This document shows, in pieces, positions 11,986 through 28,402 of a stretch of DNA of 64,000 bases. The stretch is from a virus. Below the pieces are notes generated by a model. It did no database searches. It was not told the DNA's origin and saw nothing but the letters and a program-made list of their open reading frames with translations. The stretch spans positions 98,012 through 162,011 of the IMG/VR virus record IMGVR_UViG_3300008267_000003, one strand, 5' to 3'. Position numbers and translations under genes: made by a program. Every line of letters begins with the position of its first letter. Position 1 is the first letter of the stretch.

Positions 11986-12880
11986 CTATCTTGCTTTAGT
12001 TGTTGCTGTAGGTCTCTCTTCTGTAGCAGCTTACTTTTCTATACTTGGACTCACTGCAATCTTTGCAGCTTCATATTGGCCTGTTATTATTATGGGATCA
12101 ATGCTCGAGGCTGCTAAGGTTGTTGCTGCTTCATGGGCATTTCGTAATTGGAATGTAGCTCCTGCGTTCATCAGATACTATCTCGTAGCGGCTGTTGCTA
12201 TTCTAATGATGATCACATCAATGGGTACGTTTGGGTATCTTTCCAAAGCTCATATTGAACAAACCTCATCTGTTGGTGATATTGCGGCTCAGGTTGCAGT
12301 GTATGATGAAAGGATCAAGAATCTAAATGAAAACATCGAGGCTAACCGTAAACTTCTTAAACAGTTTGACGAGGCAGTTGACCAGGTCATGTCACGCTCG
12401 ACGGATTCTAAGGGGGCGGAACGCTCGCTCCAAATTAGAAAATCACAACAGAAAGAGCGTAGCCGCCTCATGGAAGAAATTTCTACTCTACAAAAAGAGG
12501 TTGGGAGGCTTAGTGCTGAGAGATCCCCACTGGTTTCGCAAGTCAAAAAAGTCGAGAAAGAGGTCGGTCCAATCAAGTACATCGCAGAACTTTTTATTGA
12601 TAGGGCTGATGATTCGTTTTTGGAGAAGACGGTCCGCTGGGTTATTATAATGATTGTGACTGTATTTGATCCTCTGGCTGTGCTGTTGCTTATTGCAGCC
12701 AATATGGGTATAATACGACAAGGTAGGATTAGTAAGATGAACAACACACGGGCTGCAAATATAGAAGTGAATAGAGATCTTGCTGCTGAGAGAAGGTTCA
12801 AAAAGCTACAAGAGCTAACTGGCAAGGCAAGCCGCAGTAAAGTTACTATTGACAAAAACAAGATAAGGAAGATGACATGA
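11978..12880 (+). CDS. Membrane protein with a coiled coil
   Basis: Three N-terminal hydrophobic segments, a coiled coil, EVGPIKYIA and a C-terminal TM. Confidence 0.8.
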   Translation: MINYLALVVAVGLSSVAAYFSILGLTAIFAASYWPVIIMGSMLEAAKVVAASWAFRNWNVAPAFIRYYLVAAVAILMMITSMGTFGYLSKAHIEQTSSVGDIAAQVAVYDERIKNLNENIEANRKLLKQFDEAVDQVMSRSTDSKGAERSLQIRKSQQKERSRLMEEISTLQKEVGRLSAERSPLVSQVKKVEKEVGPIKYIAELFIDRADDSFLEKTVRWVIIMIVTVFDPLAVLLLIAANMGIIRQGRISKMNNTRAANIEVNRDLAAERRFKKLQELTGKASRSKVTIDKNKIRKMT

Positions 12881-13932
12881 GTTTTTTAAAGAGTTTGATT
12901 AAGGAGATTGGTGATGAGGACACTTATTTGGCCAGTGACGGCGGTGGTAGTGCTGAGTATTCTGGTTGTATTGATACTGGCAGCTATATTCTCAACGCTC
13001 TTCTCTCTGGCAGCATCTATGGCGGCGTACCTGATAATAAAATTACTGCATTTGCAGGAGAGTCCGCTACTGGTAAAACTTTCTTCGTACTTGGTATCGT
13101 TAGAGCCTTCCTTGACAAGAACCCAAACGCAGCAGTCGTCTACTACGATACAGAAGCAGCCGTCACCAAAGCAATGATGGAATCTCGTGGCATTGATACA
13201 ACACGTGTTATCATTGCTGAGCCAGATACAATTCAAAAATTTAAAACTCATGCTTTAAAGTTGATTGAGGCCTATGAGAAGCAGCCAGAAGATACACGTC
13301 CTAAGATGATGTTCGTGTTAGATAGTCTAGGATTGTTGTCAACATCAAAAGAGATGGAAGATTCTCTTGATGGTAAAGATGTAAGGGACATGACAAAGTC
13401 GCAAGTTATCAAAGCTGCTTTTAGAGTACTGACATTGAAGTTGGCAAAGGTCAAAGTACCTATGCTTGTTACTAACCACGTGTATGAGGTGATTGGATCG
13501 TATGTACCAACAAAAGAACTCGGAGGCGGAACAGGTCTCAAGTATGCTGCCAGCACTATTGCAATGCTCTCTAAAAAGAAAGAGAAGGATGGCGATGGAG
13601 ACATCATTGGTAACCAAATCAAAATCAAAACATACAAGTCGAGACTCTCAAAAGAGAACCAAGACGCAACTGTGCTACTTACTTACGACAAGGGCCTAGA
13701 TAGATACTTTGGTTTACTAGACCTTGCTGAAGAAGCTGGTGTAATTAAAAAAGTATCAACACGGTATGAGTTGCCAGATGGGCGTAAAGTATTTGGTAAA
13801 GAGATTAACAATAATCCAGAACAATACTTTACAGAAGAGATTTTGCAACAGCTAGAGAACTACGCAAAAGGAAAGTATAGTTATGGATCCCAAGTCGGAA
13901 CATTACAAGATAACCTTCAAGAATCAGAGTGA
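12877..13932 (+). CDS. uvsX: RecA-like recombinase UvsX
   Basis: IDTGSY, GESATGKT, LDSLG, GGGTGLKYAAS. Confidence 0.96.
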   Translation: MSFLKSLIKEIGDEDTYLASDGGGSAEYSGCIDTGSYILNALLSGSIYGGVPDNKITAFAGESATGKTFFVLGIVRAFLDKNPNAAVVYYDTEAAVTKAMMESRGIDTTRVIIAEPDTIQKFKTHALKLIEAYEKQPEDTRPKMMFVLDSLGLLSTSKEMEDSLDGKDVRDMTKSQVIKAAFRVLTLKLAKVKVPMLVTNHVYEVIGSYVPTKELGGGTGLKYAASTIAMLSKKKEKDGDGDIIGNQIKIKTYKSRLSKENQDATVLLTYDKGLDRYFGLLDLAEEAGVIKKVSTRYELPDGRKVFGKEINNNPEQYFTEEILQQLENYAKGKYSYGSQVGTLQDNLQESE

Positions 13933-14065
13933 CCAGATAGGCTTCAAGTTCTTTTTTAATGACAGAGACATACTGGACTTTCTTAAGACGAGACCTAATG
14001 GTGCACTAATACTCAAATTGGAGCAATATGATAGAGAAACTGATACTTTCCAACTTATTAAGTAA
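13883..14065 (+). CDS. Small hypothetical protein overlapping uvsX and gp41
   Basis: Fills the uvsX-helicase gap (the position of T4 gene 40); no motif recognised. Confidence 0.5.
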   Translation: MDPKSEHYKITFKNQSDQIGFKFFFNDRDILDFLKTRPNGALILKLEQYDRETDTFQLIK

Positions 14066-15419
14066 TGAGGAGTATGGCCGAAAGGCCATTCCTTTTTTAA
14101 AGTCGGAGTACTTTCAAGAAAGAACTATACGAGCGCTATACGATAGTATCGATACGTTTGTAAAGCAGTATAACAAGTTTCCTAGTAAAGAAGCACTTGT
14201 TATTGAATTAGATAATGACAAATCAATAGCGAGTATCTTCAGTGATGTTGAATCGCTAGTAACTGATCTTGAAGATACTCCTTCAACCAATCTCGAGTGG
14301 CTCTTAGACCAGACAGAGAAGTTCTGTCAGGATAAAGCAATTTATAATGCTATCATGAAGTCCATTCAGATCATCGATACGGACAAAGATAATCATAGCA
14401 AGGGTGCTATACCTCAAATTCTATCTGACGCTCTTGCTGTATCTTTTGACTCCAACGTGGGTCATGATTTTTTAGAAGACTTTGAGTCTCGATATGACTT
14501 TTATCACAAGAAAGAAAAACGTGTTCCATTCGATCTGGATTACTTTAACAAGATTACTAAGGGAGGACTCCCAACTAAGACCCTTAATGTGGTACTTGCT
14601 GGTACTGGTGTTGGTAAGTCTCTCTTCATGTGTCATTGTGCTGCAGCTAACCTCTTTAAAGGACATAATGTTCTTTATATAACAATGGAAATGGCTGAGG
14701 AGCGTATTGCTGAACGTATTGATGCAAATATGCTTAATGTTACTGTCGATGAACTGGCACTGCTTCCTAAAGATTCTTATCAGAAGAAGATTGATCGTGT
14801 TCGTGAGAAGACTAACGGTAAGTTAATAATTAAAGAATATCCTACAGCATCTGCTGGTGCCGGTCACATGAGACATTTGTTGAATGAGTTGAAACTTAAA
14901 CGAAACTTCAAACCAGATATCATATACATTGATTATCTTAATATTTGTATTTCTTCGAGATTGAAATATGGTGCAAATGTCAACTCTTATACATACATCA
15001 AGGCTATTGCAGAAGAGCTGAGAGGTCTTGCTGTTGAGTTTGATGTCCCGATCGTTACAGCTACACAGACTACTAGAAGCGGATTTACTAGTAGTGATCT
15101 GGGCCTTGAAGATACCAGTGAATCATTTGGCCTTCCAGCCACAGCTGACTTTATGATTGCATTGATAAGTTCAGAAGAGTTGCAGGACCTCAACCAATTC
15201 ATGGTTAAGCAGCTTAAGAACCGCTTTAATGATCCAGGGACTCATAGAAGATTTGTTATAGGCGTTGACAGGTCTAAGATGAGACTGTATGATGTAGAAC
15301 AGACAGCACAAGAAGATGTGCTTGATGATGATACACCAGTATTCGATAAATCAGATTCCGGAATGAGAATCAAATCAGAAAAAGGTAAGTTTAAAGATGC
15401 TTTTAAATCGTTTAGTTAG
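14028..15419 (+). CDS. gp41: Replicative DnaB-like helicase (T4 gp41)
   Basis: AGTGVGKS, ITMEMAEE, IDYLN, ATQTTR, SESFGLPATAD, KNRFND. Confidence 0.97.
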   Translation: MIEKLILSNLLSNEEYGRKAIPFLKSEYFQERTIRALYDSIDTFVKQYNKFPSKEALVIELDNDKSIASIFSDVESLVTDLEDTPSTNLEWLLDQTEKFCQDKAIYNAIMKSIQIIDTDKDNHSKGAIPQILSDALAVSFDSNVGHDFLEDFESRYDFYHKKEKRVPFDLDYFNKITKGGLPTKTLNVVLAGTGVGKSLFMCHCAAANLFKGHNVLYITMEMAEERIAERIDANMLNVTVDELALLPKDSYQKKIDRVREKTNGKLIIKEYPTASAGAGHMRHLLNELKLKRNFKPDIIYIDYLNICISSRLKYGANVNSYTYIKAIAEELRGLAVEFDVPIVTATQTTRSGFTSSDLGLEDTSESFGLPATADFMIALISSEELQDLNQFMVKQLKNRFNDPGTHRRFVIGVDRSKMRLYDVEQTAQEDVLDDDTPVFDKSDSGMRIKSEKGKFKDAFKSFS

Positions 15420-15585
15420 CATATTCTGGTTTCTGATTATGTTCACAATAGTATTCTCCATATCAACTTTCTTTCTAACAGTTAACCATGTCATTAGTTA
15501 TGTTAGCAGGTTGTTTGATTTACCTATGGTTGTAATCTATACGATGATAGAAAGACAAAATGAGGCTGAGGACGAGAAAGTTTAA
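15397..15585 (+). CDS. Small membrane protein
   Basis: N-terminal hydrophobic stretch, overlaps both neighbours. Confidence 0.5.
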   Translation: MLLNRLVSIFWFLIMFTIVFSISTFFLTVNHVISYVSRLFDLPMVVIYTMIERQNEAEDEKV

Positions 15586-16036
15586 TAATCGAAAGCTATC
15601 CAGTATACTTCGAACAGCAACTAAATTTTATATTCAACACCTACTTCCAAACTATAAACACAGTCTTTTCAAAATTGACATAATTGGTGTAAAAAATTTA
15701 GAAGCGGATGGTACATTCGAGAAAATATCAACGAACAGATATACTATAGAGCTGAGGACTGATTTAGATATACAAATAATGCTACTAACGCTTGCTCATG
15801 AATTGGTTCACCTTAAACAATATGCAACCAATGAATTGAGAAGCCGGGTGGTTGCTGGCCAGCTTGTTGATATATGGAAAGGCAAGCGGTACAGGAATCT
15901 CAAATACGATGACCAACCGTGGGAGATAGAAGCGTTACAAAAAGAACAAGATTTGTTCGAAGATTTCATATCCGAGTGTTATGCGTCTGGAAAATTGATA
16001 AATAAGCTAGTGAAACTGCGCGGTTTCACCCGTTGA
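15560..16036 (+). CDS. Zn metallopeptidase-like protein
   Basis: TLAHELVHLKQY (HExxH) and PWEIEA. Confidence 0.75.
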   Translation: MRLRTRKFNNRKLSSILRTATKFYIQHLLPNYKHSLFKIDIIGVKNLEADGTFEKISTNRYTIELRTDLDIQIMLLTLAHELVHLKQYATNELRSRVVAGQLVDIWKGKRYRNLKYDDQPWEIEALQKEQDLFEDFISECYASGKLINKLVKLRGFTR

Positions 16037-16061
16037 CCTAATTCCCACTTTCCATTATAGT
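16033..16061 (+). promoter_or_regulatory. sigma70-type early promoter
   Basis: TTGACC-17-TATAGT with the GTTGACCTAATT element. Confidence 0.7.
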
Positions 16062-16089
16062 AATAATACATTACTAACTCGGAGCTTCT

Positions 16090-16593
16090 ATGTCTAAGAC
16101 TTTTGTTGCTATTTTAGCAATGTATTTTATTTTTGTGATTAGCAATGACCCAGCAGAGAAACGTGCAGTAATCCAGCCCGCGCAGACGTTATCTCCTGAT
16201 ATGATGAATCTACTATCAACAGCTAAGAAGTATACTAACTATCAGGGAACTCTTAGTCTACCGCACGTCAGCGAGGTTTCTCAGAAAAAGCTAGAGGAGA
16301 TGTACTGCAATAACCGTCCTCGCTGTCCAGTATCTGCTCTTTACTTCCAAGGTCAGATATTCTACAGTGACCGTCTAGATATGCAGGACTTGTTATCACG
16401 TTCTATCCTCCTCCATGAGTTCGTACACCACGTACAGAATGAAAGACACGGTGATACATACGATTGTGATATGTGGAAAGCAAAAGAGTTAGAAGCATAC
16501 AAAATACAAGCTCAGTTTCTTAGGAAACATGGATATAATGACCAAATCATTCGCGATGTTGTAAAGACATTGAGATGCCCTATTAAAGGATAA
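16090..16593 (+). CDS. Secreted or membrane-anchored HExxH protein
   Basis: Signal-like N-terminus, LLHEFVHHVQ, ELEAY. Confidence 0.65.
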   Translation: MSKTFVAILAMYFIFVISNDPAEKRAVIQPAQTLSPDMMNLLSTAKKYTNYQGTLSLPHVSEVSQKKLEEMYCNNRPRCPVSALYFQGQIFYSDRLDMQDLLSRSILLHEFVHHVQNERHGDTYDCDMWKAKELEAYKIQAQFLRKHGYNDQIIRDVVKTLRCPIKG

Positions 16594-16595
16594 GC

Positions 16596-17165
16596 ATGAC
16601 AAATAAAGTGAGTGAAACCACTGCAGCTACAGCGCAAGATGATGTTGATTTGCTATTATATAAATCTGGATCGTTTTATCTTTCCGGTGACATCGATGAA
16701 CATTCTGTTTCAGATTGCATAAAGTGGATACTGGCTGAAAATATGGCCAACCGTCATACGCATCTGAACTTGTACATAAACAGTCTTGGTGGTGACCTAT
16801 ACCAGGCTTTTGGTCTTATTGACCTGATAAAAGCTAGTAGAATTCCTGTACACACAATAGGCGTAGGTAGTTTGATGAGTGCTGCATTTCTTATCTTTAT
16901 TTCTGGTTCAAAAGGCAATCGAATTATGACTAAAAATACTAGCGTCATGTCTCACCAGTTCTCAACCTATTATGAGGGTAAAGAACACGACGTTAAAGCT
17001 TCAGAAAAAGAAACTAGATATATTAAGCAGCGTATGTTAGATGTTATTAAACAAAGCTGTACAATGGACGAGAGAATGATAAAGCGAAAGCTACTTCCAC
17101 CATCCGATGTCTGGCTATCTGCAGATGAATGCGTGGAGTTAGGTGTAGCAGATGCAATCTTCTAG
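16596..17165 (+). CDS. clpP: ClpP-like protease
   Basis: LYINSLGG, SLMSAA (Ser), MSHQ (His), DVWLSADECVELGVAD. Confidence 0.9.
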   Translation: MTNKVSETTAATAQDDVDLLLYKSGSFYLSGDIDEHSVSDCIKWILAENMANRHTHLNLYINSLGGDLYQAFGLIDLIKASRIPVHTIGVGSLMSAAFLIFISGSKGNRIMTKNTSVMSHQFSTYYEGKEHDVKASEKETRYIKQRMLDVIKQSCTMDERMIKRKLLPPSDVWLSADECVELGVADAIF

Positions 17166-17173
17166 TAAAATTG

Positions 17174-17195
17174 ACCCACTTCGGTGGGTTTTTTT
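17174..17195 (+). terminator. Intrinsic terminator (UUCG loop)
   Basis: ACCCAC-TTCG-GTGGGT followed by a T run. Confidence 0.9.
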
Positions 17196-17199
17196 ATGA

Positions 17200-17207
17200 T
17201 ATAAATA
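17200..17207 (+). promoter_or_regulatory. T4-type late promoter
   Basis: TATAAATA just after the terminator, 25 nt before ORF 17232. Confidence 0.85.
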
Positions 17208-17231
17208 GAAGATAATGTTACGGAGTATGCA

Positions 17232-18242
17232 ATGAAATCATTTTTTCAATTCATTTTAGAATCAGTTTTAGTTGAGAAAGCACCTACACCATCAACAGGT
17301 GCTCTCGAAGCAGCTAATAAAACAAACACAGCATTCGGAGATGCTTATGAGACAGCAACTGTCCTTCTTCTTCATAATAATACAGCTGCCCAGCATAATA
17401 AAGATAAAAACTACCTAGCTTCCATTGAGCATGTGAAACAAAAACATGAAAAAGCTATGGCCAGTCTGCCTTCTAATAAAGCAGGTGATGCGCTCACGTT
17501 TGCAAGACGATCAGTGCATGCATATCTTGGAACACTATCGCATCAGGGCATTACTCAAGATCATATACATGAGGTTCATCATACAAGCCAAGGTATCAGT
17601 TCACATTTAGGTAAAACAGTCGATAGAGCAAGTAATCCTCACGATCTGTTAATAAAGGGTTCTAAAGATGGTAAATCTTTCATGCACGGTGCATCTCTCA
17701 AAGCTAAATCAGGTACTGCATCAAACAATTCAGTAGCTGCTTTTGAAAGAGCAAGTAATGCAGGTGATTCAAAACTTGGAGTAAAGACTAATATTTCTAA
17801 GCATTGGGAAGAAGGTAAGAAGAATGCTGGGTTGGTTGGTAAGACTGCTAAAGCGATAAAAGAACTACGCCATGATCCAGAAGTCAAAGAAGCTAATAGA
17901 AAAACTCAAAATGCATCAGCTGGTACACATGCAGAGGATTTTAACAACGCTAGTCACGAGGCTAAGCAGAAACACATGCTACACTTCTTAAAAGCAAATC
18001 CAATCCTTCCATACCATTATGTTGTTGGTAATAAGGGTACATCAACACCTATCAAAACACATCCAGCTGTTCAAGCTATCCACAATTCCAAATCATTAAC
18101 TGCCACTACAAAGAACAATGTAGTTCATTTCCACAATGAAAAAGGTGAACACATTGCTTCTGCTGAGCATAGAACAACTCATGGACCTTTTGTGAGTCCA
18201 CAAGTTAATTTTAAATTTGGAACAATGAAAGCTGCAAAATAA
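17232..18242 (+). CDS. His-rich predicted internal virion protein, PD-(D/E)xK nuclease-like
   Basis: CTS-like MKSFFQFILE; GDAYE...PHDLLI...GASLK pattern. Confidence 0.5.
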   Translation: MKSFFQFILESVLVEKAPTPSTGALEAANKTNTAFGDAYETATVLLLHNNTAAQHNKDKNYLASIEHVKQKHEKAMASLPSNKAGDALTFARRSVHAYLGTLSHQGITQDHIHEVHHTSQGISSHLGKTVDRASNPHDLLIKGSKDGKSFMHGASLKAKSGTASNNSVAAFERASNAGDSKLGVKTNISKHWEEGKKNAGLVGKTAKAIKELRHDPEVKEANRKTQNASAGTHAEDFNNASHEAKQKHMLHFLKANPILPYHYVVGNKGTSTPIKTHPAVQAIHNSKSLTATTKNNVVHFHNEKGEHIASAEHRTTHGPFVSPQVNFKFGTMKAAK

Positions 18243-19408
18243 TGCGTCATATATTCTATCTACTGAAAGAATCAGCAGCCAACGAAGAGAAGTTAAAGCA
18301 TCTTGAGCATGCAGAAGACCATCCTATCAACGCTGGTGTTGATGGATACAAACATGCTGTCAACACTCTTACCGCTGTACATAAAACACTCACAGGTCAA
18401 AAGGGTGGTGCTGATCTAATGACCAAATATGATGGCAGTCCGAGTATTGTATTTGGACATCATCCACAGACTGGTAAGTTCTTTGTTGCATCCAAATCTG
18501 CGTTCAACAAAGATCCAAAGATTAACTATACTGACGAAGACATTGAAACTAATCATGGTCATGCTCCTGGTCTAGTATCTAAACTAAAGACCGCACTAGC
18601 CCATCTTCCAAAAGTTAGCCCTCAGAAAGGCGTCTTTCAAGGAGATGTGATGCATACATCTGAGGATGTGGAAGAGAAGGGTGGTAAGGTTCACTTTAAA
18701 CCAAATCTAATTAAGTACTCTACACCAGCCGACTCAGCAGAAGGTAAGAAGATTAAGAACTCCAAGATTGGTGTTTATGTCCATACAGGATATGAGGGTG
18801 GTGATGTTGAGTCCATGAAAGCAAACTATACTCCAAATCTTTCTGGTTTTGCTAACCACGACAGTGTCCATATGATGAAATGGGGATATGACACAAAGAA
18901 TTCAGACTATAATGAAGATGCTCAGAAGCAATTTAAAAGACATTTAGAAGATGCAACGGATGTTGGTAAGAAACTAAAACCTAAAGATTATGCAGCTATT
19001 GAACCTCACACCGAACATATAAAAACTTACATCAACAAGACAGTAAGAGATGATTCAACCCCTACTGCAGAAGGTTTGTATGATCATGTCAGAGACCAGC
19101 ATGAAAAGGGTATTGAAAAGGTCAAAACTCAAAAAGCAAAAGATCAAAAGACTCAAGCAATGAATACGCAGCTAGGTCATATAAGAGCTAACACTGAGGC
19201 TATCAGCAATGTGTTTGCAATGCATCATCACCTACAGAAAGCAAAGGATGTATTAGTCAATGCTATGTCTCATGGCCAAGACTTCGAACATCATATTGGT
19301 GATACAAAAACAAAACCAGAAGGATTTGTTGCTGTTGTAAATAATAGACCAACTAAGCTGGTTGATAGAAACGAGTTTAGTAAACAGAATTTCTTAGCGA
19401 GACAATAA
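18242..19408 (+). CDS. His-rich RNA-ligase-like nucleotidyltransferase (DUF6267-like), predicted internal protein
   Basis: CTS-like MRHIFYLLKE; motif I KYDGS, FQGDV, motif IV EGFV, motif V TKLV. Confidence 0.6.
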   Translation: MRHIFYLLKESAANEEKLKHLEHAEDHPINAGVDGYKHAVNTLTAVHKTLTGQKGGADLMTKYDGSPSIVFGHHPQTGKFFVASKSAFNKDPKINYTDEDIETNHGHAPGLVSKLKTALAHLPKVSPQKGVFQGDVMHTSEDVEEKGGKVHFKPNLIKYSTPADSAEGKKIKNSKIGVYVHTGYEGGDVESMKANYTPNLSGFANHDSVHMMKWGYDTKNSDYNEDAQKQFKRHLEDATDVGKKLKPKDYAAIEPHTEHIKTYINKTVRDDSTPTAEGLYDHVRDQHEKGIEKVKTQKAKDQKTQAMNTQLGHIRANTEAISNVFAMHHHLQKAKDVLVNAMSHGQDFEHHIGDTKTKPEGFVAVVNNRPTKLVDRNEFSKQNFLARQ

Positions 19409-20013
19409 TGAAAAGATTCTCTCAATTCATAGCTGAGGCAGTGCAGAAGAAAGCATTGCATGTTTTTGATATTGATGATACTCTTATGCATACAACGGCA
19501 AAGATCCACGTTAAGGACCCTCAAGGTAAGGTAGTAAAGACTCTTACAAATCAAGAGTTTAACGATCATAAGCTACCTGCAGGACACAGCTACGACTTTG
19601 GTGAATTCAGAAACGCTGAGAAGTTTAATAAAGAGTCTAAGCCAATGCCGCACATGATCAACCATGTGAAGAAGCTGACATCTGATCCAAGCAATCATGT
19701 TATATTTAATACAGCACGTGCTAACTTTGATGATAAGAATACTTTCTTGCATACCTTCAAGAAGCATGGTATTAATATGAACAAGATTCATGTTATCAGA
19801 GCAGGTAACCTCAATAAAGAGGGTGCCCCTGCTGAGAAGAAAGCTGTAGTCATTCACGGCTACATAAAGAAGCACAAGTACAATGATGTCCATATGTACG
19901 ACGATAGCAAGACTAATCTAAAGTCTTTTGTTGGATTAAAACAGGCTCATCCAAACACAACATTCCATGCTCATCACGTTGAGGGTGAGAATGTAACAAC
20001 GAAGGTAGTATAA
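19408..20013 (+). CDS. His-rich HAD-family phosphatase, predicted internal protein
   Basis: CTS-like MKRFSQFIAE; FDIDDT, NTAR, K, YDDS. Confidence 0.75.
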   Translation: MKRFSQFIAEAVQKKALHVFDIDDTLMHTTAKIHVKDPQGKVVKTLTNQEFNDHKLPAGHSYDFGEFRNAEKFNKESKPMPHMINHVKKLTSDPSNHVIFNTARANFDDKNTFLHTFKKHGINMNKIHVIRAGNLNKEGAPAEKKAVVIHGYIKKHKYNDVHMYDDSKTNLKSFVGLKQAHPNTTFHAHHVEGENVTTKVV

Positions 20014-20621
20014 TGAAAAGATTTACCAATTTCCTCCTAGAAGGAAAAGATAAGACTGCGGTTCTACTATTTGGTAGAATGAATCCCATTACTAGTGGTC
20101 ATGAGGAGAACGTAGAAGCTGCCCATGATCTGGCAAACTCTCATGATGGCCACCTTCATGTTGTTGCTAGTGGTTCACATGATGAGAAAAAGAATCCTCT
20201 TTCACCAGAACAAAAGCAAAAACATTTGCAGCGTGCATTCGGACACTTAGACAGTACAACAATTACTACAGCATCTAAATCAAAACCAACAATCATGCAT
20301 CATGCATCTGATATTGCTAAGACAGGTGTTAAGCATCTAGTGATTGCTGGTGGTAGTGACAGGGCAGAGGAGTATAAAACGTTGCTCAATAAGTATAATG
20401 GAGTCAAAGGAAAAGCTCATGGTGAGTATCACTTTGATTCAATTACAGTAAAGAATACCGGTGAACGTAAGGCTGGTGTTAGTGGTACTGATATGAGAAA
20501 TCATGCTTCAGGTGGTAACTACGGTAAGTTCAAAGCTGGACTTCCAAGTAAAATCAAGAAGAATGAGAAGTACTCAAGAGATATGTACAATGATGTAAGA
20601 TCGGGAATGAATATTAAATGA
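20013..20621 (+). CDS. HxGH (cytidylyltransferase-like) nucleotidyltransferase, predicted internal protein
   Basis: CTS-like MKRFTNFLLE; FGRMNPITSGH, KNPL, GSDR, SGTDMR. Confidence 0.8.
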   Translation: MKRFTNFLLEGKDKTAVLLFGRMNPITSGHEENVEAAHDLANSHDGHLHVVASGSHDEKKNPLSPEQKQKHLQRAFGHLDSTTITTASKSKPTIMHHASDIAKTGVKHLVIAGGSDRAEEYKTLLNKYNGVKGKAHGEYHFDSITVKNTGERKAGVSGTDMRNHASGGNYGKFKAGLPSKIKKNEKYSRDMYNDVRSGMNIK

Positions 20622-23600
20622 CTACAAAGATCACTGCTGATAACATTGAGCAAACTACACTTGCCACACTTTCAGGTGGTCCAGCAATTGCTAATATTCA
20701 GATTGCAAATTCATCATACGGTCTATTAGATGATACTGCTGTGAATACAGCTGGTGGCTATGTGGTAATTAATGGAACTAAGTTTTCGAATGGATGTTCT
20801 GTCCTTATAGGTAACACTGTAGCTACAACTGTTACGTTTGTATCAGCTACTCAGGTTAGAGCTCAGGTACCTGCAAAGGTTGGAGCTTCATATGTGGTGT
20901 ATGTGACTAATCCGGATGGTGGTACTGCTATTGCAGTAAACGGTCTTACATATAGTAACACTCCTGTTTGGGCTACAAATAGTACATTGACCCCGGGTGC
21001 TGTTGATGAGGCTATTAGTATTAATTTATCTGCCCCTTCAGATTCCAACGTTGTTTATTCTGTTGCTGCAGGTAGCTCGCTTCCATCTGGTGTGTCATTA
21101 GCTTCAAATGGATTGTTGAGCGGCACTATCACTGGTATATCAGAAGAAACCACTTATAACTTTACCGTGGATGCGATCGACGTTGAACTACAGGATACGT
21201 CTAGATCATTTAGCATAACTATTATAGCTGGTGATCAATACTACAAAAACACAACATTACATTTGAATGGTGAAACAGCATCTAATACATGGATCATAGA
21301 TGCTAGTACTAATAAGTTTCCAATCACCGTTGCTGGTGATACTAAGCCCGTAGGATTTAGTCCATATGAAACTATTTGGAGTAATTATTTTGATGGTGCC
21401 GGGGATGACTTAACGATCCCTACGAACTCGGCTTTCACTTACGGTACTGGAGATTTTACCATAGAAATGTGGGTGTATATAACAGCCAATCCAGGCGATT
21501 ACGCTTATTTTTATGCCCAAGGGCCTAACACAACTGCGTCTATGTGTTTATATATTCAAAGTGGGAAATTCAATGTTTGGAACGGATCCAACATTATTGT
21601 TGGATCAACATCATATTCACTGAACAGGTGGTATCACGTTGCGTTAAGTAGATCGGGAACATCTTTAAAATTGTTTTTGAATGGTGTTGAAGATGGATCT
21701 GCAACAAATAGTAGTAATATAACAACCGGGTCTACATATGGTTCAACCATCGGTCGTTGGGTAGAAATTGTAGATAATCGTTATTTCACTGGATACATCT
21801 CAAATGCTCGTGTCGTTAAAGGCACTGCACTCTACACAGCAAACTTCACTCCACCAACCTCACCATTAACCGCAATCACAAACACCAGTTTATTAACCTG
21901 TCAAAGTAATAGATTAAGAGATGCTAGCACAAATAATTTTACAATTACAAGAAACGGTGATGTATCAGTAAGTAATTTTGGTCCTTTTGTCGAAACTGAT
22001 TTAATTACTGGTAGTGCATTTTTTGATGGCACAGGGGATTATTTAAATGCAGGTACTACTCAACTTTGGACTCCTGCTAATAGTTTTACTGTAGAAAGCT
22101 GGTTTTATATTACTTCTTTTGGTGGTAACACTAGAGGGCTTTTTGCTAAAGATGCTGGTACCTCAGGTTCCTCTAGAGGCATATCGATTTACGTAAACAC
22201 AAATGGATCGGTAACTGTATTTTATTCATCATCTGGATCAGACGAATTATCTGCAACTTCTGTTTCTTCTGGTTTAGTAACAGTTAATCAATGGTATCAT
22301 TTTGCTTTTGTCAAAAACGGAAGTAGTTGCACTCTTTATTTAAATGGATCTTCAGTATTATCCTTCACTTCAGCAACTATTGCGTGTCCCGTATCTCCAT
22401 CAAATTTAATCGGTGCGTTTACAAATGGATCAACTGCTTTAAATATGCTAGGGTATATGAGTGATTTTAGATTGGTTTCAAACACAGCAGTCTACACTTC
22501 AAACTTTACACCACCAACCACACCATTAACTGCAATTGCAAACACAAGTTTACTCACACTACAATCTCGTATTGGCGAAAACAATAATCGTTTTGTTGAT
22601 ACTTCTGGATTGAATAATATTATCACTAGAAACGGTAATACAACACAAGGTACATTTAGTCCATATCAAAGAGGTGGTTGGAGTGGTTATTTTACGGGAT
22701 CATCAACAAGTTACATATCGACACCATCGACAACATTATTAAATCAAGGACAAACATACACTGTACAGTGTTGGATATATCCAACATCATTTACAACATC
22801 AACTAGCGCTGTTCGTAGAATGTATCTGTTTGTTAAGGGTGTTATTTACGCAGGTTTATCAATACATAGTGACGGAACATTAGGTTGGTATGGTTGGCCT
22901 ACTCCTGGTGGAATGATAGCTACTTCAGCGGCAGGAACAATCACAACTAATTCTTGGCAGCATGTTGCACTCGTTGTTAATCCCGGCAACTATATTAAGT
23001 TATTTAAAAATGGTGTAGAAGTAGGAACAGCGAGTTATACTGCTGCAGGCGCAGATGGATCAGCGATAATAATAGGGCATGGTGATACAGGTCAAGGTAC
23101 CGATGGATTCATTGGATATATTAGTAATTTTAAGATAACCCAATCAGCATTAACCGGTGGTCAATTGGATTATTCCACCACACCAACAATTTCCTCACCA
23201 ACAGGATCCTCGTTATTAACATTGCAAACGAATCAATTCAATGATACAAGCAACTATAATTTATCTATAACACCAGCCGCAGCTGCATCAGTACAACCAT
23301 TTAGTCCATTCAAAACGCATACGATAACAGCTAATACTCTTAGTGTTTTTTTTAATGGTACTGGAGACTTTTTAAGTGTTCCTGTAAATACTGCTTTTCA
23401 ATTTGGAACTGGAGATTTTACAATTGAATGCTGGTGGTATCCGACAAGTTTAGCAACATTCCAACCTTTGATTTATCATACTGATGACAGCGGCGTTGCT
23501 GGAACAGGAGAGTATGTATTAGTTTATAATACAACTTTAGGAATGAGGTTTTATATAAACGGTGGAACAACAACAATAACACAAGGAAATACTACAGGAT

Positions 23601-25147
23601 GGTCTACAAATTTGTGGTACCATGTAGCAGCAGTTAGAAACGGAAATACGTTAACGATTTATAGAAACGGAATTTCTATTGCAAGCGGTAGTGTTTCGGG
23701 AATTACTATTGGTGCAAGTGTACTAACTTACATAGCCGGAGAACCATTTGATCCAGGATATATGACAGGGTATATTTCGAATGTTCGTATCGTTAAAGGA
23801 ACCGCAGTCTACACTTCAAACTTTACACCACCAACCTCACCATTAACCGCAATTGCAAACACCAGTTTATTAACCTGTCAGTCGAGCAGTATAATTGACA
23901 ATAGCACAAATAATTTTGCAATTACAAGAAATGGTAATGCTAGAGTTACTACTGTGAATCCATTAGGATTTACCGTAACTAATTTATCAGGATCATCGGC
24001 GGATTATTCCATCATTGACGAAGGTGGTAGTATGTACTTTGATGGCACTGGTGATTATTTGGCAACTGCGGATAAAGTTGATTTAAGACCAGGAACTTCC
24101 AACTTTACTTTAGAAGGTTGGATTTATCGTGATGTTGCTGGTGCAGCACACACCATATATGCAAAAGGTGGAGCGTCAACAGGTATTTTATTACAAGTCA
24201 CATCTACAAATGTATTGAGGTTTACTCATACAACAACTAATATAGATTCTACTATAACTATACCAGCAAAATCTTGGACTCATGTAGCAGTGGTACGTAG
24301 TGGCACTTCAACAAATCAAACTAAACTCTATATTAATGGTGTATTTGCAGCACAAGGAACAGTAAGTACTGATTTCACACAAACAGAAGAAGCTAGAGTT
24401 GGAACAAACAGAGCTGCTGGTGAAAACTTTAATGGTTATATTTCCGCATTGAGATTCTTAAAAGGTGTTGATCATTACACTTCTGGATTTGTACCACCAG
24501 CTGCACCACTAACACCCATTGTAGGAAGTACTTTATTGTTGAATGGTACTAATGGTGGTGTTTTTGATTACACTAGAAAAAATAATTTAGAAACAGTTGG
24601 TGATATTAAGATCAGAAACAATATTGTTAAGTATGGTAACACATCAATGTATTTTGATGGTACTGGAGATTATTTAAAAGCATCAACATCCGACATGGGT
24701 AATTTTGGCACAGGAAATTTTACAATTGAGATGTGGGTGTACTTTAACACTGTTTCAGGAACACAAAATTTAATTGATTTTAGAACAGCAACAAATGATG
24801 TTGCTTTAACAATCGCCTTAGCGAGTAGTGCTATAATATTATATGTAACCGGGTCTACAAGAATAACAACATCAACTTTGTCTGCTACAACTTGGTATCA
24901 TATCGCGTGTGTTCGCAGTTCTGGTGTTACAAAAATTTATATCAATGGAACTCAATCTGGATCTAATTATACCGATACCAATTCTTATGTAGGAAAGGCA
25001 AATAGGCCTTTGATCGGCGAATTGGCTGATGGAACTACACCATTACAACCATTAAATGCTTATGTTGACGATCTTCGTATCACCAAAGGTGTTGCAAGAT
25101 ACACCGCAAACTTCACAGCACCTACATCAGCTTTACTGACCAGATGA
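20618..25147 (+). CDS. Large virion fibre/adhesin: IPT/Ig-like N-terminus plus about six LamG/ConA-like repeats
   Basis: Repeated FDGTGDYL...FTIEMW...WYHVA...YISNxR...YTxNFTPP units; T/S/G/N-rich. Confidence 0.85.
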   Translation: MTTKITADNIEQTTLATLSGGPAIANIQIANSSYGLLDDTAVNTAGGYVVINGTKFSNGCSVLIGNTVATTVTFVSATQVRAQVPAKVGASYVVYVTNPDGGTAIAVNGLTYSNTPVWATNSTLTPGAVDEAISINLSAPSDSNVVYSVAAGSSLPSGVSLASNGLLSGTITGISEETTYNFTVDAIDVELQDTSRSFSITIIAGDQYYKNTTLHLNGETASNTWIIDASTNKFPITVAGDTKPVGFSPYETIWSNYFDGAGDDLTIPTNSAFTYGTGDFTIEMWVYITANPGDYAYFYAQGPNTTASMCLYIQSGKFNVWNGSNIIVGSTSYSLNRWYHVALSRSGTSLKLFLNGVEDGSATNSSNITTGSTYGSTIGRWVEIVDNRYFTGYISNARVVKGTALYTANFTPPTSPLTAITNTSLLTCQSNRLRDASTNNFTITRNGDVSVSNFGPFVETDLITGSAFFDGTGDYLNAGTTQLWTPANSFTVESWFYITSFGGNTRGLFAKDAGTSGSSRGISIYVNTNGSVTVFYSSSGSDELSATSVSSGLVTVNQWYHFAFVKNGSSCTLYLNGSSVLSFTSATIACPVSPSNLIGAFTNGSTALNMLGYMSDFRLVSNTAVYTSNFTPPTTPLTAIANTSLLTLQSRIGENNNRFVDTSGLNNIITRNGNTTQGTFSPYQRGGWSGYFTGSSTSYISTPSTTLLNQGQTYTVQCWIYPTSFTTSTSAVRRMYLFVKGVIYAGLSIHSDGTLGWYGWPTPGGMIATSAAGTITTNSWQHVALVVNPGNYIKLFKNGVEVGTASYTAAGADGSAIIIGHGDTGQGTDGFIGYISNFKITQSALTGGQLDYSTTPTISSPTGSSLLTLQTNQFNDTSNYNLSITPAAAASVQPFSPFKTHTITANTLSVFFNGTGDFLSVPVNTAFQFGTGDFTIECWWYPTSLATFQPLIYHTDDSGVAGTGEYVLVYNTTLGMRFYINGGTTTITQGNTTGWSTNLWYHVAAVRNGNTLTIYRNGISIASGSVSGITIGASVLTYIAGEPFDPGYMTGYISNVRIVKGTAVYTSNFTPPTSPLTAIANTSLLTCQSSSIIDNSTNNFAITRNGNARVTTVNPLGFTVTNLSGSSADYSIIDEGGSMYFDGTGDYLATADKVDLRPGTSNFTLEGWIYRDVAGAAHTIYAKGGASTGILLQVTSTNVLRFTHTTTNIDSTITIPAKSWTHVAVVRSGTSTNQTKLYINGVFAAQGTVSTDFTQTEEARVGTNRAAGENFNGYISALRFLKGVDHYTSGFVPPAAPLTPIVGSTLLLNGTNGGVFDYTRKNNLETVGDIKIRNNIVKYGNTSMYFDGTGDYLKASTSDMGNFGTGNFTIEMWVYFNTVSGTQNLIDFRTATNDVALTIALASSAIILYVTGSTRITTSTLSATTWYHIACVRSSGVTKIYINGTQSGSNYTDTNSYVGKANRPLIGELADGTTPLQPLNAYVDDLRITKGVARYTANFTAPTSALLTR

Positions 25148-25531: not shown

Positions 25532-26173
25532 GTGAATACATTATTTGACGATATTGCAAAATTTAGAGATGAAGAGGTTGATGGTATTGGAGGGTGGTGG
25601 TGGCCCGTTGCTGATGATGGAGCGTGGGATGGTCCAAGTAAAGATTGGCAAGGGTTGAAGAATGCATTTCAATATGTGAAACAAAAAGGGGTTGTAGTTC
25701 AGGCAGGAGGTAATTGTGGTCTTTATCCAAGGCTACTATCCGAACATTTTGACTATGTTTACACATTCGAACCAGATCTCTATAACTTCCACTTTCTAGC
25801 TCGTAACTGCCAAAAAGAAAACATTATTAAAATTAATGCTGCTCTTGGTGAAATGAACAAATTAGTAGGTACATCTAGATCCGGATATACAAGTAACAAC
25901 TGCGGTGGATTGACTGTCACAAACAACAATACTTTTATTCCAACATTCTCCATTGATCAACTAGCACTTAGTCGCTGTGATATGATTCAGCTCGATTGTG
26001 AGGGTTATGAACCAAACGTGATTGTTGGTGCAATGGAAACAATTCTACAGTTTAAACCAGTTATAACATTGGAAACCTGCACAATAGAGATTGAACAATT
26101 ACTAACTCCTCTTGGTTATAAAAGAATGGAAGGACGATTTGGTCATGTTGATCAATGTCTCGTAGCTTCATGA
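25532..26173 (+). CDS. FkbM-family SAM methyltransferase
   Basis: VQAGGNCG, YTFEPD, QLDCEGYE. Confidence 0.85.
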   Translation: MNTLFDDIAKFRDEEVDGIGGWWWPVADDGAWDGPSKDWQGLKNAFQYVKQKGVVVQAGGNCGLYPRLLSEHFDYVYTFEPDLYNFHFLARNCQKENIIKINAALGEMNKLVGTSRSGYTSNNCGGLTVTNNNTFIPTFSIDQLALSRCDMIQLDCEGYEPNVIVGAMETILQFKPVITLETCTIEIEQLLTPLGYKRMEGRFGHVDQCLVAS

Positions 26174-26175
26174 AT

Positions 26176-26183
26176 TATAAATA
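26176..26183 (+). promoter_or_regulatory. T4-type late promoter
   Basis: Intergenic TATAAATA. Confidence 0.8.
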
Positions 26184-26228: not shown

Positions 26229-28142
26229 ATGAAAAAAGATAAAGATAATCAAAATACGGCTATCAGCCGTGCCAAAAAAGGACAAGCAATTCTAACTGGT
26301 AATCCAGCAGATATTGTTGTTGTCAGCCCCGAAGAAAAGCCTAAAAAGCTCCAATCAGAAGATCATTTACTTGAAAAAGTAGTTAGCCTTGTTCAACGTC
26401 GTAAGAGAGCAATCTCTATGAGACGTCGTGAACCTAAGATGGAGCGTAGACGTCAAATCTTAAAAACTAGACTAGCATCTAAAGAAAAGTTAATGCAGCG
26501 TGCCATGAGAATGGCTAAGCAGCTTTTGCGTAGAAAGATGGCTGGTAAACGTGGCTCTCAGTATCAATACCTTGGTCCTACAGAAAGACTTAATATTGAT
26601 AAAATGATTGAGCCAAGAGCCCAGGCAATTAAAAAGATTGCAATGAGACTGCTTCCAAGAGTTCAATCTGGTGAAAGAAGAAGACTTAGTGCAGTTCACG
26701 CTGGCAAATCTACTAAAGGTGTTTATAACACATCAACCAGTATTGTATCTCACTACGAACCAAGTATTAAATCCAATTTGATTGGTGAGAAGATCTCCAA
26801 AGAAGATTTGAATCAATTGTTCAGTCTTTACGAAGCTGGTTTTATGAGAAATCTTGGTTCTGTAATAACTTCTCCTATTAGAGCAGCTGGTATTGTAGGT
26901 AAGATTGGTTTAGGAGCAGCGGCAATCAGCAGTGCAATGTCTACACCTAGAGGGGCTGTAGGTACACTGGCTGCAGGAACTGCTGCTGCAAGTAAGAAGA
27001 TGTCTGAGTTTGGAAAAATAGACAAAGACAAAGAAAAAGATACTGGTAAGTCATGGTCTCTGTTCAAAACTCCTCAAGAGAAAATGGAGTTGGAAAGACT
27101 CAAGCAATCTAAAGAAGCCACAACACAGTCAAAGATAACTACTCAGCAAAAGAAACTTGATTTAGCATCACAGAAGGATGAATTAGAGAAGAAAAAGAAA
27201 CTTAACCTTGTAGCTCATAAAGAATGGGACTATGAAGGATATCTTACTGAAAAAGCTCTGCACAGCATATTTCAAAAGTCTCTAGATAGTGATATACCTT
27301 TTGAGTCTCTTAAAGAAGTATTCAACAGGGGAATACAAGAGTGTAGCTGTCAAGGTATGAAAGAGAAGCAACAGGTTGCAATGCAGCGTGTTAACTCGTT
27401 TATCTCTCAGGGTAAGTCTTATTATGAAGAGGATAAGGATATTGCTGAGAGACAAGGTCTATGGGCTAATATTCACGCTAAGCGTAAACGTATCGAATCT
27501 GGGTCTGGTGAAAGAATGAGAAAGCCAGGATCCAAAGGTGCTCCAACAAAACAAAACTTTGTTGATGCTGCAGAGGAAACTGTAAAGAAGACACCACATG
27601 AAAAGTTTAAAGCTGGTTTAAAGAAAGCTGGATACGATCCTGACGCAGGTGCAAAAAGGTTATTAGATCTTATTGCAAAGCAAAAGAAAGAGCGTGAAGA
27701 GCGTGAAGCAAAGTATAAAGAGATGTCTGAAGAAGATCAGCTCAATGAGTATGGAGATACTGCTAAGGGTCAGAAAATGCTGACCAAGGTTCAGAAACGA
27801 GCAGTAGATAGAGTAGTATCTAAAAAAGCAGATACAGATCCTAAGTATGCTAAAAAGAATAGCGATACTGCTAAACGTGCTTGGGAGAGATTTACTAATA
27901 TTGATGAGAGCTTTGTCGTGGACCGTGCAGCTGGTTACAGTACGACGTACACAGCGGCGGATTTAGGTATTAAAATGCAAGGTGGTTTTGAACTACATCC
28001 TTCAGTAACGGAAGAAGGTGGGGCAGGTGATGAGGGTACTAACAAGCTAGTTAATAAATATAAAAAAGATACTCCAGGTGAGCAGCTTGAAGCTATGATT
28101 AGAATGATGAGATCAAAAAGAAAGGCTAGCACACCATGCTAA
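26229..28142 (+). CDS. Large basic modular protein, predicted internal head (poly)protein
   Basis: K/R-rich modules separated by hydrophobic-x-E sites; late promoter. Confidence 0.6.
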   Translation: MKKDKDNQNTAISRAKKGQAILTGNPADIVVVSPEEKPKKLQSEDHLLEKVVSLVQRRKRAISMRRREPKMERRRQILKTRLASKEKLMQRAMRMAKQLLRRKMAGKRGSQYQYLGPTERLNIDKMIEPRAQAIKKIAMRLLPRVQSGERRRLSAVHAGKSTKGVYNTSTSIVSHYEPSIKSNLIGEKISKEDLNQLFSLYEAGFMRNLGSVITSPIRAAGIVGKIGLGAAAISSAMSTPRGAVGTLAAGTAAASKKMSEFGKIDKDKEKDTGKSWSLFKTPQEKMELERLKQSKEATTQSKITTQQKKLDLASQKDELEKKKKLNLVAHKEWDYEGYLTEKALHSIFQKSLDSDIPFESLKEVFNRGIQECSCQGMKEKQQVAMQRVNSFISQGKSYYEEDKDIAERQGLWANIHAKRKRIESGSGERMRKPGSKGAPTKQNFVDAAEETVKKTPHEKFKAGLKKAGYDPDAGAKRLLDLIAKQKKEREEREAKYKEMSEEDQLNEYGDTAKGQKMLTKVQKRAVDRVVSKKADTDPKYAKKNSDTAKRAWERFTNIDESFVVDRAAGYSTTYTAADLGIKMQGGFELHPSVTEEGGAGDEGTNKLVNKYKKDTPGEQLEAMIRMMRSKRKASTPC

Positions 28143-28402
28143 GTTTCTTAGAATACATAGCTGAAGCAGAATATCAAGGTCGTGATGTACCTCTTAACAA
28201 GCCTATGGCTGGAGACGTAAAGAAGTCAAAAGTGTTTGTCAAGAATGAGTCAGGTAACGTTGTAAAAGTAAACTTTGGTGACAAGAATATGACTATTAAA
28301 AAGAATATTCCTGCTCGCCGTAGAAGCTTTAGAGCAAGACACAACTGCGACAATCCTGGTCCTAAAACAAAAGCAAGATATTGGTCATGTAAGGCATGGT
28401 AA
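28136..28402 (+). CDS. Small basic protein (DUF6321-like) with CTS-like N-terminus
   Basis: MLSFLEYIAE; VNFGD, RRRSFRARHNC, ARYWSCKAW. Confidence 0.7.
   Translation: MLSFLEYIAEAEYQGRDVPLNKPMAGDVKKSKVFVKNESGNVVKVNFGDKNMTIKKNIPARRRSFRARHNCDNPGPKTKARYWSCKAW

Follow-up and report, generated by a model that had tools for sequence, protein, structure and literature searches.

In the 64,000-nt window analysed here (bases 98012-162011 of the 162,011-bp IMG/VR record IMGVR_UViG_3300008267_000003), four coupled genes, p1 to p4, each encode a protein that begins with a ten-residue leader, and these leaders match the capsid-targeting sequence (CTS) of the phage T4 internal proteins (IPs) far beyond chance. 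Examination of the gene neighbourhoods of relatives revealed that this cassette is modular cargo around a ligase/transferase pair, namely p2, of family DUF6267, and p4, a nucleotidyltransferase of the HIGH superfamily, and not a fixed pathway. The cargo is probably made late, loaded into the head by means of its leaders, trimmed after the glutamate at position 10 (E10) and ejected with the DNA. The CTS of T4 is known as a means of loading small inhibitors of restriction and, in engineered systems, foreign proteins; here the same type of tag appears to serve, naturally, for the loading of whole enzymes in lake and ocean phages of a very abundant group.

The record has direct terminal repeats and is rated complete by CheckV, and its protein similarities are those of a T4-like aquatic myovirus of the Kyanoviridae type. 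A first-pass annotation of the window had proposed that the four genes form a packaged multi-enzyme kit. The tag, the protease and scaffold genes, the late promoter and the folds all speak for this proposal; the part that did not survive is the idea of a single conserved repair pathway.

Leaders, predicted late expression and virion proteins

Leaders were scored with a position matrix built from 42 distinct leaders of DUF6267 homologues, all from other contigs, and applied to all 236 tiled open reading frames (ORFs) of the 162-kb genome. The p1 to p4 leaders score 14.0-18.0, that of an 88-aa ORF at 28136-28402 scores 16.9, and that of an 82-aa ORF near the genome start, on the opposite strand and beginning MKRFADYINE, scores 10.1; the next-best ORF of the 236 is UvsX, at 3.8, and none of the 43,834 internal 10-mers of this genome reaches 10 with the same matrix. 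The sequence MKTYQEFIAE, which the first-pass annotation had attributed to T4 IPII and IPIII, does begin both ipII and ipIII in the T4 record (NC_000866.4), where it scores 14.2 and the neighbouring genes score -6 or lower.

The positions conserved among the leaders of this genome are aromatic residues at 4 and 7, isoleucine or leucine at 8 and E10. Amber-suppression work on IPIII showed that residues 4 and 7 determine targeting and residues 8 and 10 determine processing (PMC9026906), so that the identification of these N-termini as T4-type CTSs holds at the very residues defined by experiment. The structural models of p1 and p2 place the leader outside the fold, as an N-terminal helix predicted with low confidence. 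The genome also encodes a prohead protease of the gp21 type (Peptidase_S77, PF03420, 122 bits; phrog_207), and the genes for a gp22-type scaffold (phrog_237) and for the gp23 major head protein (phrog_138) adjoin it. An L-T-E site occurs at residue 56 of the major head protein, which is roughly the position of trimming in T4 gp23.

The architecture at 17173-20621 is as first described, and the four N-termini are as quoted (all features are on the plus strand unless another is named). An intrinsic terminator, with a 7-bp stem (17173-17190), a TTCG loop and a T-run, ends the unit of an upstream ClpP-like gene at 17173-17197; the T4-type late promoter TATAAATA follows at 17200-17207, then a GGAG ribosome site (17222-17225) and, at 17232, the first ATG of p1. 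The genes p1 (17232-18242), p2 (18242-19408), p3 (19408-20013) and p4 (20013-20621) are joined by 1-nt TAATG overlaps and hence translationally coupled.

There are 13 copies of TATAAATA in the genome, 8 of which lie in the 6% that is non-coding. The motif precedes the start of the sheath gene by 30 nt, that of gp22 by 28 nt, that of p1 by 24 nt and that of the ORF at 26229-28142 by 45 nt (this second copy in the window lies at 26176-26183), and a copy on the opposite strand stands 32 nt before the 82-aa leader ORF. By its placement it is evidently the late promoter of this phage. Because it lies before the sheath gene, gp22 and every unit with a leader ORF, all six leader ORFs are downstream of the putative late promoter, and its presence at the same spacing ahead of the operon, the sheath gene and gp22 supports, at the level of sequence, the prediction that the cassette would be made late.

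The four proteins also share an unusual composition. Among the 102 plus-strand ORFs of at least 150 aa they rank as the top four in His content (6.9-9.0%, against a mean of 2.2% with a standard deviation of 1.7); Cys, which has a genome frequency of 0.92%, is absent from their 1,087 mature residues; and the isoelectric points (pI) of their mature forms are 8.3-9.7. All four families keep this bias in relatives, with 5-10% His and about 0-0.3% Cys compared with 2.4% (His) and 1.0% (Cys) for the ORFs around them, and T4 IPII and IPIII are Cys-free as well. That four unrelated folds have one composition suggests a common environment, for which a head filled with DNA and kept outside a cell for long periods would be a reasonable candidate.

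Experimental evidence of virion association is available for two orthologues of p4 from cultured cyanophages. S-SM1 gp190, a member of the cyanophage family T4-GC190, gave 25 peptide counts in purified virions (PMC3037559, Table S8), in which the products of three flanking genes (GC1453, GC1454 and GC1455) were detected as well; gp190 begins MKKFSAFLNE. The 'cytidylyltransferase' S-CREM2 gp154 was detected by 3 peptides in virions purified on CsCl (PMC10665884), and its N-terminus, MKNFSSFLTE, has a leader score of 17.2. The authors of the S-CREM2 study remarked that cytidylyltransferases recur across proteomes of cyanophage virions; head loading by the leader, if it occurs, would explain that recurrence.

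Three further ORFs deserve mention in connection with the leaders. The fifth leader-tagged ORF, at 28136-28402, sits after the ORF at 26229-28142 and encodes 88 residues beginning MLSFLEYIAE (phrog_7595; mature pI 10.4), and its sequence is that of a small, basic, T4 IP-like protein. Outside the window, on the minus strand at genome positions 1666-1914 and distant from the other leader ORFs, lies the 82-aa MKRFADYINE ORF, which adds a sixth candidate to the internal proteins. A 377-aa ORF, again outside the window (genome 72112-73245) and situated between the genes for the portal and gp21, begins MAKSLKNILE, with I-L-E at positions 8-10; its product has 5% His, no Cys and no PHROG match, and is possibly another head-internal protein with a variant leader.

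Predicted folds of the four proteins

The motifs from which the first-pass annotation had named the four proteins each fall in an invariant column of the corresponding family alignment, and its fold assignments agree with what follows. PADLOC returned no match for any of p1 to p4.

The 336-aa product of p1 (leader MKSFFQFILE, 17232-17261) has no match in Pfam or PHROG, nor any by tblastn among GenBank phages. An AlphaFold model from 31 homologues (pLDDT 89.9) matches HinP1I (2fkc_A) with Z 10.6 over 213 aligned residues at a root-mean-square deviation (rmsd) of 3.7, and MspI with Z 8.4; the next structural match is at 4.5. E40, D138 and S155-L-K157 are invariant in the 31 sequences. The body of p1 is accordingly predicted, from the model, to be a HinP1I/MspI-like nuclease of the PD-(D/E)xK class: The likeness extends to the whole fold over about 210 residues, and p1 has a D-X16-S-x-K motif and an invariant Glu on an N-terminal helix. 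This presumably parallels the D-X18-QxK of HinP1I and the D-X17-NxK of MspI, each with a Glu on the helix. Monomeric enzymes of the HinP1I/MspI type cut one strand at a time (PMC7026639). In contrast to those enzymes, p1 is leader-tagged, lies in its family almost always directly upstream of DUF6267 and has no cognate DNA methyltransferase in this genome, the nearest methyltransferase being of the FkbM type. Nor does the genome avoid a possible target of p1, in that no 4-mer palindrome is depleted (observed/expected 1.06 for GCGC and 1.25 for CCGG). The one palindrome that stood out is the longer ACATGT, which is strongly depleted genome-wide (7 observed against 31 expected), with CATG mildly so (0.76), which may reflect a host restriction system of that specificity.

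The product of p2 (388 aa; leader MRHIFYLLKE, 18242-18271) belongs to DUF6267 (PF19782, E 1e-98), and its best tblastn matches are in cyanophage P-RSM6 (34% identity) and the OM43 phage Melnitz (32%). No ligase model of Pfam matches it, PF19782 being its sole Pfam match, and comparison with solved structures by single sequence or by profile gives no match. Its model (pLDDT 89.2), however, resembles the RNA ligase NgrRnl (6vt1; Z 10.9, 181 residues aligned, rmsd 3.4), followed by REL1 (Z 9.1), T4 Rnl2 (8.7) and T4 Rnl1 (8.2), and the top 50 rows of the structural comparison are all ligases. Invariant in 36 sequences are K62-x-D64-G65, D135, E360-G-x-V363, K372 and R376; assigned by their order, D135, E360-V363 and K372 would be ligase motifs III, IV and V. 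We therefore take p2 to have, as predicted, the fold of a ligase-type covalent nucleotidyltransferase, in keeping with the earlier assignment. It shares with the nick-sealing RNA ligases (NgrRnl/Rnl5 of Naegleria, T. brucei REL1, T4 Rnl2) the nucleotidyltransferase fold, the motif I lysine in KxDG and invariant acidic and basic residues in the order of motifs III, IV and V. It differs from them in having neither an OB domain nor a C-terminal domain of the Rnl2 type, and in possessing a helical bundle of about 120 residues (225-342) inserted before motif IV as well as a HIGH-transferase partner. Since PF01068, PF01653 and PF09414 match nothing in the complete genome, which thus has no other recognisable DNA or RNA ligase, the DUF6267 protein is its only ligase-fold protein.

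The product of p3 (201 aa; leader MKRFSQFIAE, 19408-19437) retains all four motifs of a HAD phosphatase, D21-x-D23-x-T25, T102, K145 and D165-D166, invariant in 10 sequences, and is on this basis a predicted intact HAD phosphatase, as had been proposed. It matches phrog_415, a PHROG named polynucleotide kinase, at E 4e-9; its matches to HAD models of Pfam and NCBIfam are weak, those to Pfam falling below the cut-offs. There is no match to the Pfam family of the PNK 3'-phosphatase, the p3 profile finds no solved relative, and tblastn against GenBank phages gives a single match, in an uncultured jumbo phage.

The product of p4 (202 aa; leader MKRFTNFLLE, 20013-20042) has two motifs of the HIGH superfamily, T27-S-G-H30 and S157-G-T-D-M-R162, in which H30 and R162 are invariant, and it matches phrog_3041 at E 7e-44, all of which upholds its description as an HxGH nucleotidyltransferase; PF01467 gives 19.5 bits, just under its cut-off of 21. 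Its family is the cyanophage 'cytidylyltransferase' T4-GC190, the profile of the p4 family matching S-SM1 gp190 at 8e-58 and S-CREM2 gp154 at 2e-42. The suggestion that it might be an NMNAT that regenerates NAD was not supported: The NadR NMNAT model TIGR01526 gives 17.8 bits against a cut-off of 341 and TIGR00482 gives 15.7 against 112, and p4 is far below any equivalog model of an NMNAT, a PPAT or a cytidylyltransferase. The best solved match is the TmcAL-like MJ0951 (E 5e-4), through two generic motifs only, with PPAT and NadR also weak, and in the ESM Atlas p4 falls among viral CTP_transf_like clusters only. Some relatives (5 loci) have a second leader-tagged paralogue of the transferase upstream of DUF6267; it lacks the S-G-T-x-x-R segment and, judging from that loss, may be catalytically dead. 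A small Dps/ferritin-like gene often lies between this paralogue and DUF6267.

A constant pair and an exchangeable slot

If the four genes formed one pathway, their homologues would be expected to travel together. We examined 80 viral contigs found through DUF6267 and 53 found through p1, counting a gene as near when it lay within 2.5 kb, in loci with enough flanking sequence. The transferase is near DUF6267 in 37 of 38 loci, and this is the only constant pair. The HAD gene is near DUF6267 in 8 of the 38 and occurs in 1 of 28 loci found through p1; the p1 family is present in 1 of the 80 loci found through DUF6267, and the 28 loci on the p1 side have the ligase nearby in 24 cases and the transferase in 21. 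The pairing is also seen in cyanophages, where DUF6267 (T4-GC71) is the immediate upstream neighbour of T4-GC190 in all 16 genomes compared by Sullivan et al.

The gene upstream of DUF6267 is of a different character; in 99 loci its products belong to 25 different BLAST clusters. Where relatives have a DUF6267 protein that is 85-89% identical to p2, the slot of p1 holds an unrelated phrog_13937 protein, and when the p1 family is aligned by hhalign with the slot protein of the 85%-identical relative, 13 leader columns align and nothing else. Across the 80 DUF6267 loci, leaders occur not only on DUF6267 proteins but also on the transferase, on the HAD phosphatase and on further proteins that fall into 12 BLAST clusters, and the alignment of the p1 nuclease family shows that it is likewise leader-bearing. 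The slot thus behaves like an arms-race locus, and a single tag shared by exchangeable bodies has been described in the IP loci of T-even phages as well. The T4 internal proteins with their CTS, and the variable IP loci of T-even phages, were reportedly the subject of work by Repoila et al. in 1994 and by Mullaney and Black in 1996.

The possibility that the whole slot is occupied by one divergent nuclease superfamily was considered and rejected: hhalign joins just one cluster to p1 (c4, 97.9%). S-RIM2 gp173 reaches 13% probability over the D...SLK stretch in the same comparison and the other slot clusters give nothing. An apparent likeness of Melnitz gp15 and S-SM1 gp188 to the p1 family is at the level of motifs and was recognised by eye.

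The pair itself may act as a unit. A model of the complex between mature p2 and mature p4 scores 0.65, the best of 3 controls scoring 0.00; that mark is reached by 58 of 80 solved complexes and by 2 of 110 mismatched pairs, counts that hold only roughly here because custom alignments were used. The three runs agree in 100% of contacts, with a pLDDT of at least 88 for the partner, and the predicted interface places p4 residues 167-176, just after S-G-T-D-M-R, against p2 residues 50-52 and 218-225. DUF6267 and the transferase are thus likely, according to the model, to work as a heterodimer. The two are also found joined in 8 ORFs, 7 of them in the order ligase-transferase and 1 in the order transferase-ligase. 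As a test of whether these fusions are polyproteins, internal leader-like cut sites were sought in the ligase-transferase ORFs; the linkers contain none, and no site scores above 1.3. In one relative, a 1255-aa ORF consists of a transferase domain, about 650 very basic low-complexity residues, a copy of the 88-aa phrog_7595-like module and DUF6267; the module has the motif ...RRKSFRARHNCDNPGP..., which is also present in the ORF at 28136-28402, and the ORF as a whole resembles a polyprotein of head cargo.

At least one partner, or a fusion, is tagged in 61 of 65 distinct DUF6267/transferase loci. In uncultured lineages the ligase is the tagged partner; the cultured cyanophages S-RIM2, P-SSM3, P-RSM6 and S-SM1 have the tag on the transferase and lack it on DUF6267.

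These distributions bear directly on the pathway that the first-pass annotation had proposed, in which the four packaged enzymes would act together, like the tRNA repair of T4 Rnl1/Pnkp, against anticodon-nuclease or NADase defences: The phosphatase would heal ends, the ligase would seal them and the HIGH enzyme would regenerate NAD or another nucleotide. The nearest folds to p2 are indeed RNA ligases, p3 is an intact HAD protein that matches a polynucleotide-kinase PHROG, p4 has faint matches of the NadR/NadD type, and the four genes are translationally coupled behind a single promoter. However, the four proteins include no kinase or P-loop family, the nuclease would have no role in such a pathway and occupies a slot of 25 BLAST clusters, the HAD gene is an infrequent neighbour from either side, p3 neither matches the PNK 3'-phosphatase family of Pfam nor finds a solved relative by its profile, and p4 lies far below every NMNAT cut-off, with a TmcAL-like best match. 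With no kinase, an optional phosphatase and an exchanged nuclease, the Rnl1/Pnkp analogy fails as a claim of membership and is weak as a working model, and we regard a single packaged repair pathway as improbable. The cassette resembles Pnkp and Rnl1 in that it encodes an enzyme of the RNA-ligase fold alongside a HAD phosphatase; it differs from them in the lack of a kinase, the optional phosphatase, late and putatively packaged products, and the pairing of the ligase with a HIGH transferase.

Probable loading and ejection, and possible activity

The probable route for this cargo is that each protein would be made with a T4-type capsid-targeting propeptide of about 10 residues, which would bind the gp22 scaffolding core of the prohead and be cut by the gp21-type protease after (I/L)-x-E10; in T4, the change E10D blocks cleavage while loading is retained. 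The mature enzyme would then stay in the DNA-filled head and be ejected with the genome, which would let it act ahead of any expression of phage genes. For this phage we infer that the cargo is loaded, cleaved at E10 and injected. The constant core of the cargo would be DUF6267 and the HIGH-motif nucleotidyltransferase, most likely as a heterodimer; the fast-changing slot upstream would contribute, in this phage, a monomeric restriction-type nuclease, and the HAD phosphatase would be an occasional extra.

As to activity, our best guess is that the proteins cut, trim and seal the ends of nucleic acids as infection begins; the ligase/transferase pair might seal RNA, seal DNA or pass a nucleotide to some other acceptor. 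A narrower version, which we put forward only tentatively, is that a pre-assembled DUF6267/HIGH heterodimer, carried in the head and injected together with an interchangeable restriction-type nuclease, seals or modifies such ends. If so, cut-and-repair chemistry would be brought to bear on host or phage nucleic acid before phage transcription, and the heterodimer with its nuclease would correspond, as enzymes, to the inhibitor-type internal proteins of T4.

Several observations weigh against this interpretation. Support from virion mass spectrometry is confined to the p4 orthologues of S-SM1 and S-CREM2, and the authors of the latter study cautioned that abundant soluble proteins may co-purify with virions; the DUF6267 protein of S-SM1 (GC71) has no structural mark in the gene table and is absent from the part of Table S8 that was examined. 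The DUF6267 proteins of cultured cyanophages have no leader and a normal composition (that of S-SM1 has 9 Cys), from which it follows that the function of DUF6267 does not require packaging, and some transferase orthologues start at the catalytic core, without a leader. With respect to the heterodimer, the predicted interface is no better conserved than the rest of either protein (0.48 vs. 0.63 and 0.48 vs. 0.55), and the fused ORFs could be polyproteins rather than functional couplings.

An alternative is that the proteins are loaded but act in the prohead or the finished head, where they might nick, trim and seal DNA while packaging proceeds or afterwards, or maintain the genome within the free virion. 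The targeting evidence is the same for this alternative as for ejection; nuclease, ligase and phosphatase are all enzymes of DNA ends, the genome offers no second recognisable ligase, and a Cys-free, basic and His-rich composition would suit a long stay beside DNA outside the cell. Yet a sealed head has no supply of ATP for a ligase or nucleotidyltransferase, proteins loaded by the T4 CTS, foreign enzymes included, reach the host (PMC9026906), and the nuclease slot turns over in the manner of an arms-race locus, such that action confined to the head seems to us an unlikely account. Somewhat less likely still is that the leader is a translation-initiation or stability element, or an anchor to a membrane or assembly site, on enzymes that act late in the cytoplasm: The position of the operon in a replication and recombination neighbourhood and the existence of untagged orthologues would fit, but the resemblance to the T4 CTS is tied to particular positions, those of the cleavage residues among them, tagged orthologues are found in virions, and the sheath, gp22 and gp23 proteins have no leader, which shows that it is not a general element of late genes.

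Returning to loading followed by ejection, the closest precedent is provided by IPI, IPII and IPIII of T4, which have in common with the cargo a ten-residue leader (aromatic or hydrophobic at positions 4 and 7, I/L at 8, E10), a gp21 protease and gp22 core, late expression, a basic and Cys-free composition, and the use of one leader on unrelated, rapidly exchanged bodies. The T4 proteins differ in being small, non-enzymatic inhibitors of GmrSD-type restriction (PMC12373910), whereas the cargo consists of predicted enzymes of 200-390 aa with four folds, strongly His-rich, in an aquatic Kyanoviridae-like phage. The ADP-ribosyltransferase Alt of T4 is likewise a head-packaged enzyme that gp21 trims and that is injected so as to act before phage genes are expressed; its fold and chemistry are different, and it is a single enzyme and not a cassette. 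The polyvalent proteins and the MuF- or portal-fused effectors (Iyer et al. 2017, 2022) are also enzymatic effectors injected from myovirus heads, but they are fused to structural domains, whereas here each enzyme has its own cleavable tag of the T4 type.

Cyanophage T4-GC190 is another close relative of the system, being of the same family as p4, with the same leader, adjoining DUF6267 (T4-GC71) and detected in virions; it differs in that its DUF6267 is untagged, and the published work draws no link between its presence in virions and its leader. The earlier view that no such packaged pathway had been described must therefore be qualified. The transferase family was already known from purified S-SM1 and S-CREM2 virions, and our literature search found no paper on DUF6267 and none linking a CTS to cyanophage proteins. 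The cargo thus includes a ligase-fold family without a literature of its own, which adjoins a cyanophage core gene. The leader also furnishes a simple sequence rule with which injected proteins might be predicted in uncultured T4-like phages, and the pair constitutes a testable two-enzyme unit that would act in the first seconds of infection, for which the OM43 phage Melnitz (EXVC044M) is a cultured relative with tagged copies, namely gp15, gp16 (DUF6267) and gp18 (the transferase).

The genes around the operon complete its setting. Upstream lie UvsX (12877-13932) and the gp41 helicase (14028-15419), followed by two small proteins with an HExxH motif and a ClpP-family protease (16596-17165). 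These last three, at 15560-17165, are putative proteases directly upstream of the cargo operon and before its terminator: One of the HExxH pair has a weak DUF6782-like match and the other is a DUF6647 protein, and their partner matches PF00574 at 1.9e-31. The trio is kept in the closest relatives, and a 'WLM protease domain' gene, T4-GC70, has a YES flag in the gene table of Sullivan et al. On the downstream side, a 1509-aa LamG-repeat protein of virion or baseplate structural type is encoded at 20618-25147, and since its gene overlaps p4 by 4 nt, the transcription unit continues into structural genes. Further along, at 25532-26173, is the FkbM-type methyltransferase (PF05050), which does not belong to a DNA methyltransferase family; in the closest relatives it directly follows the transferase gene.

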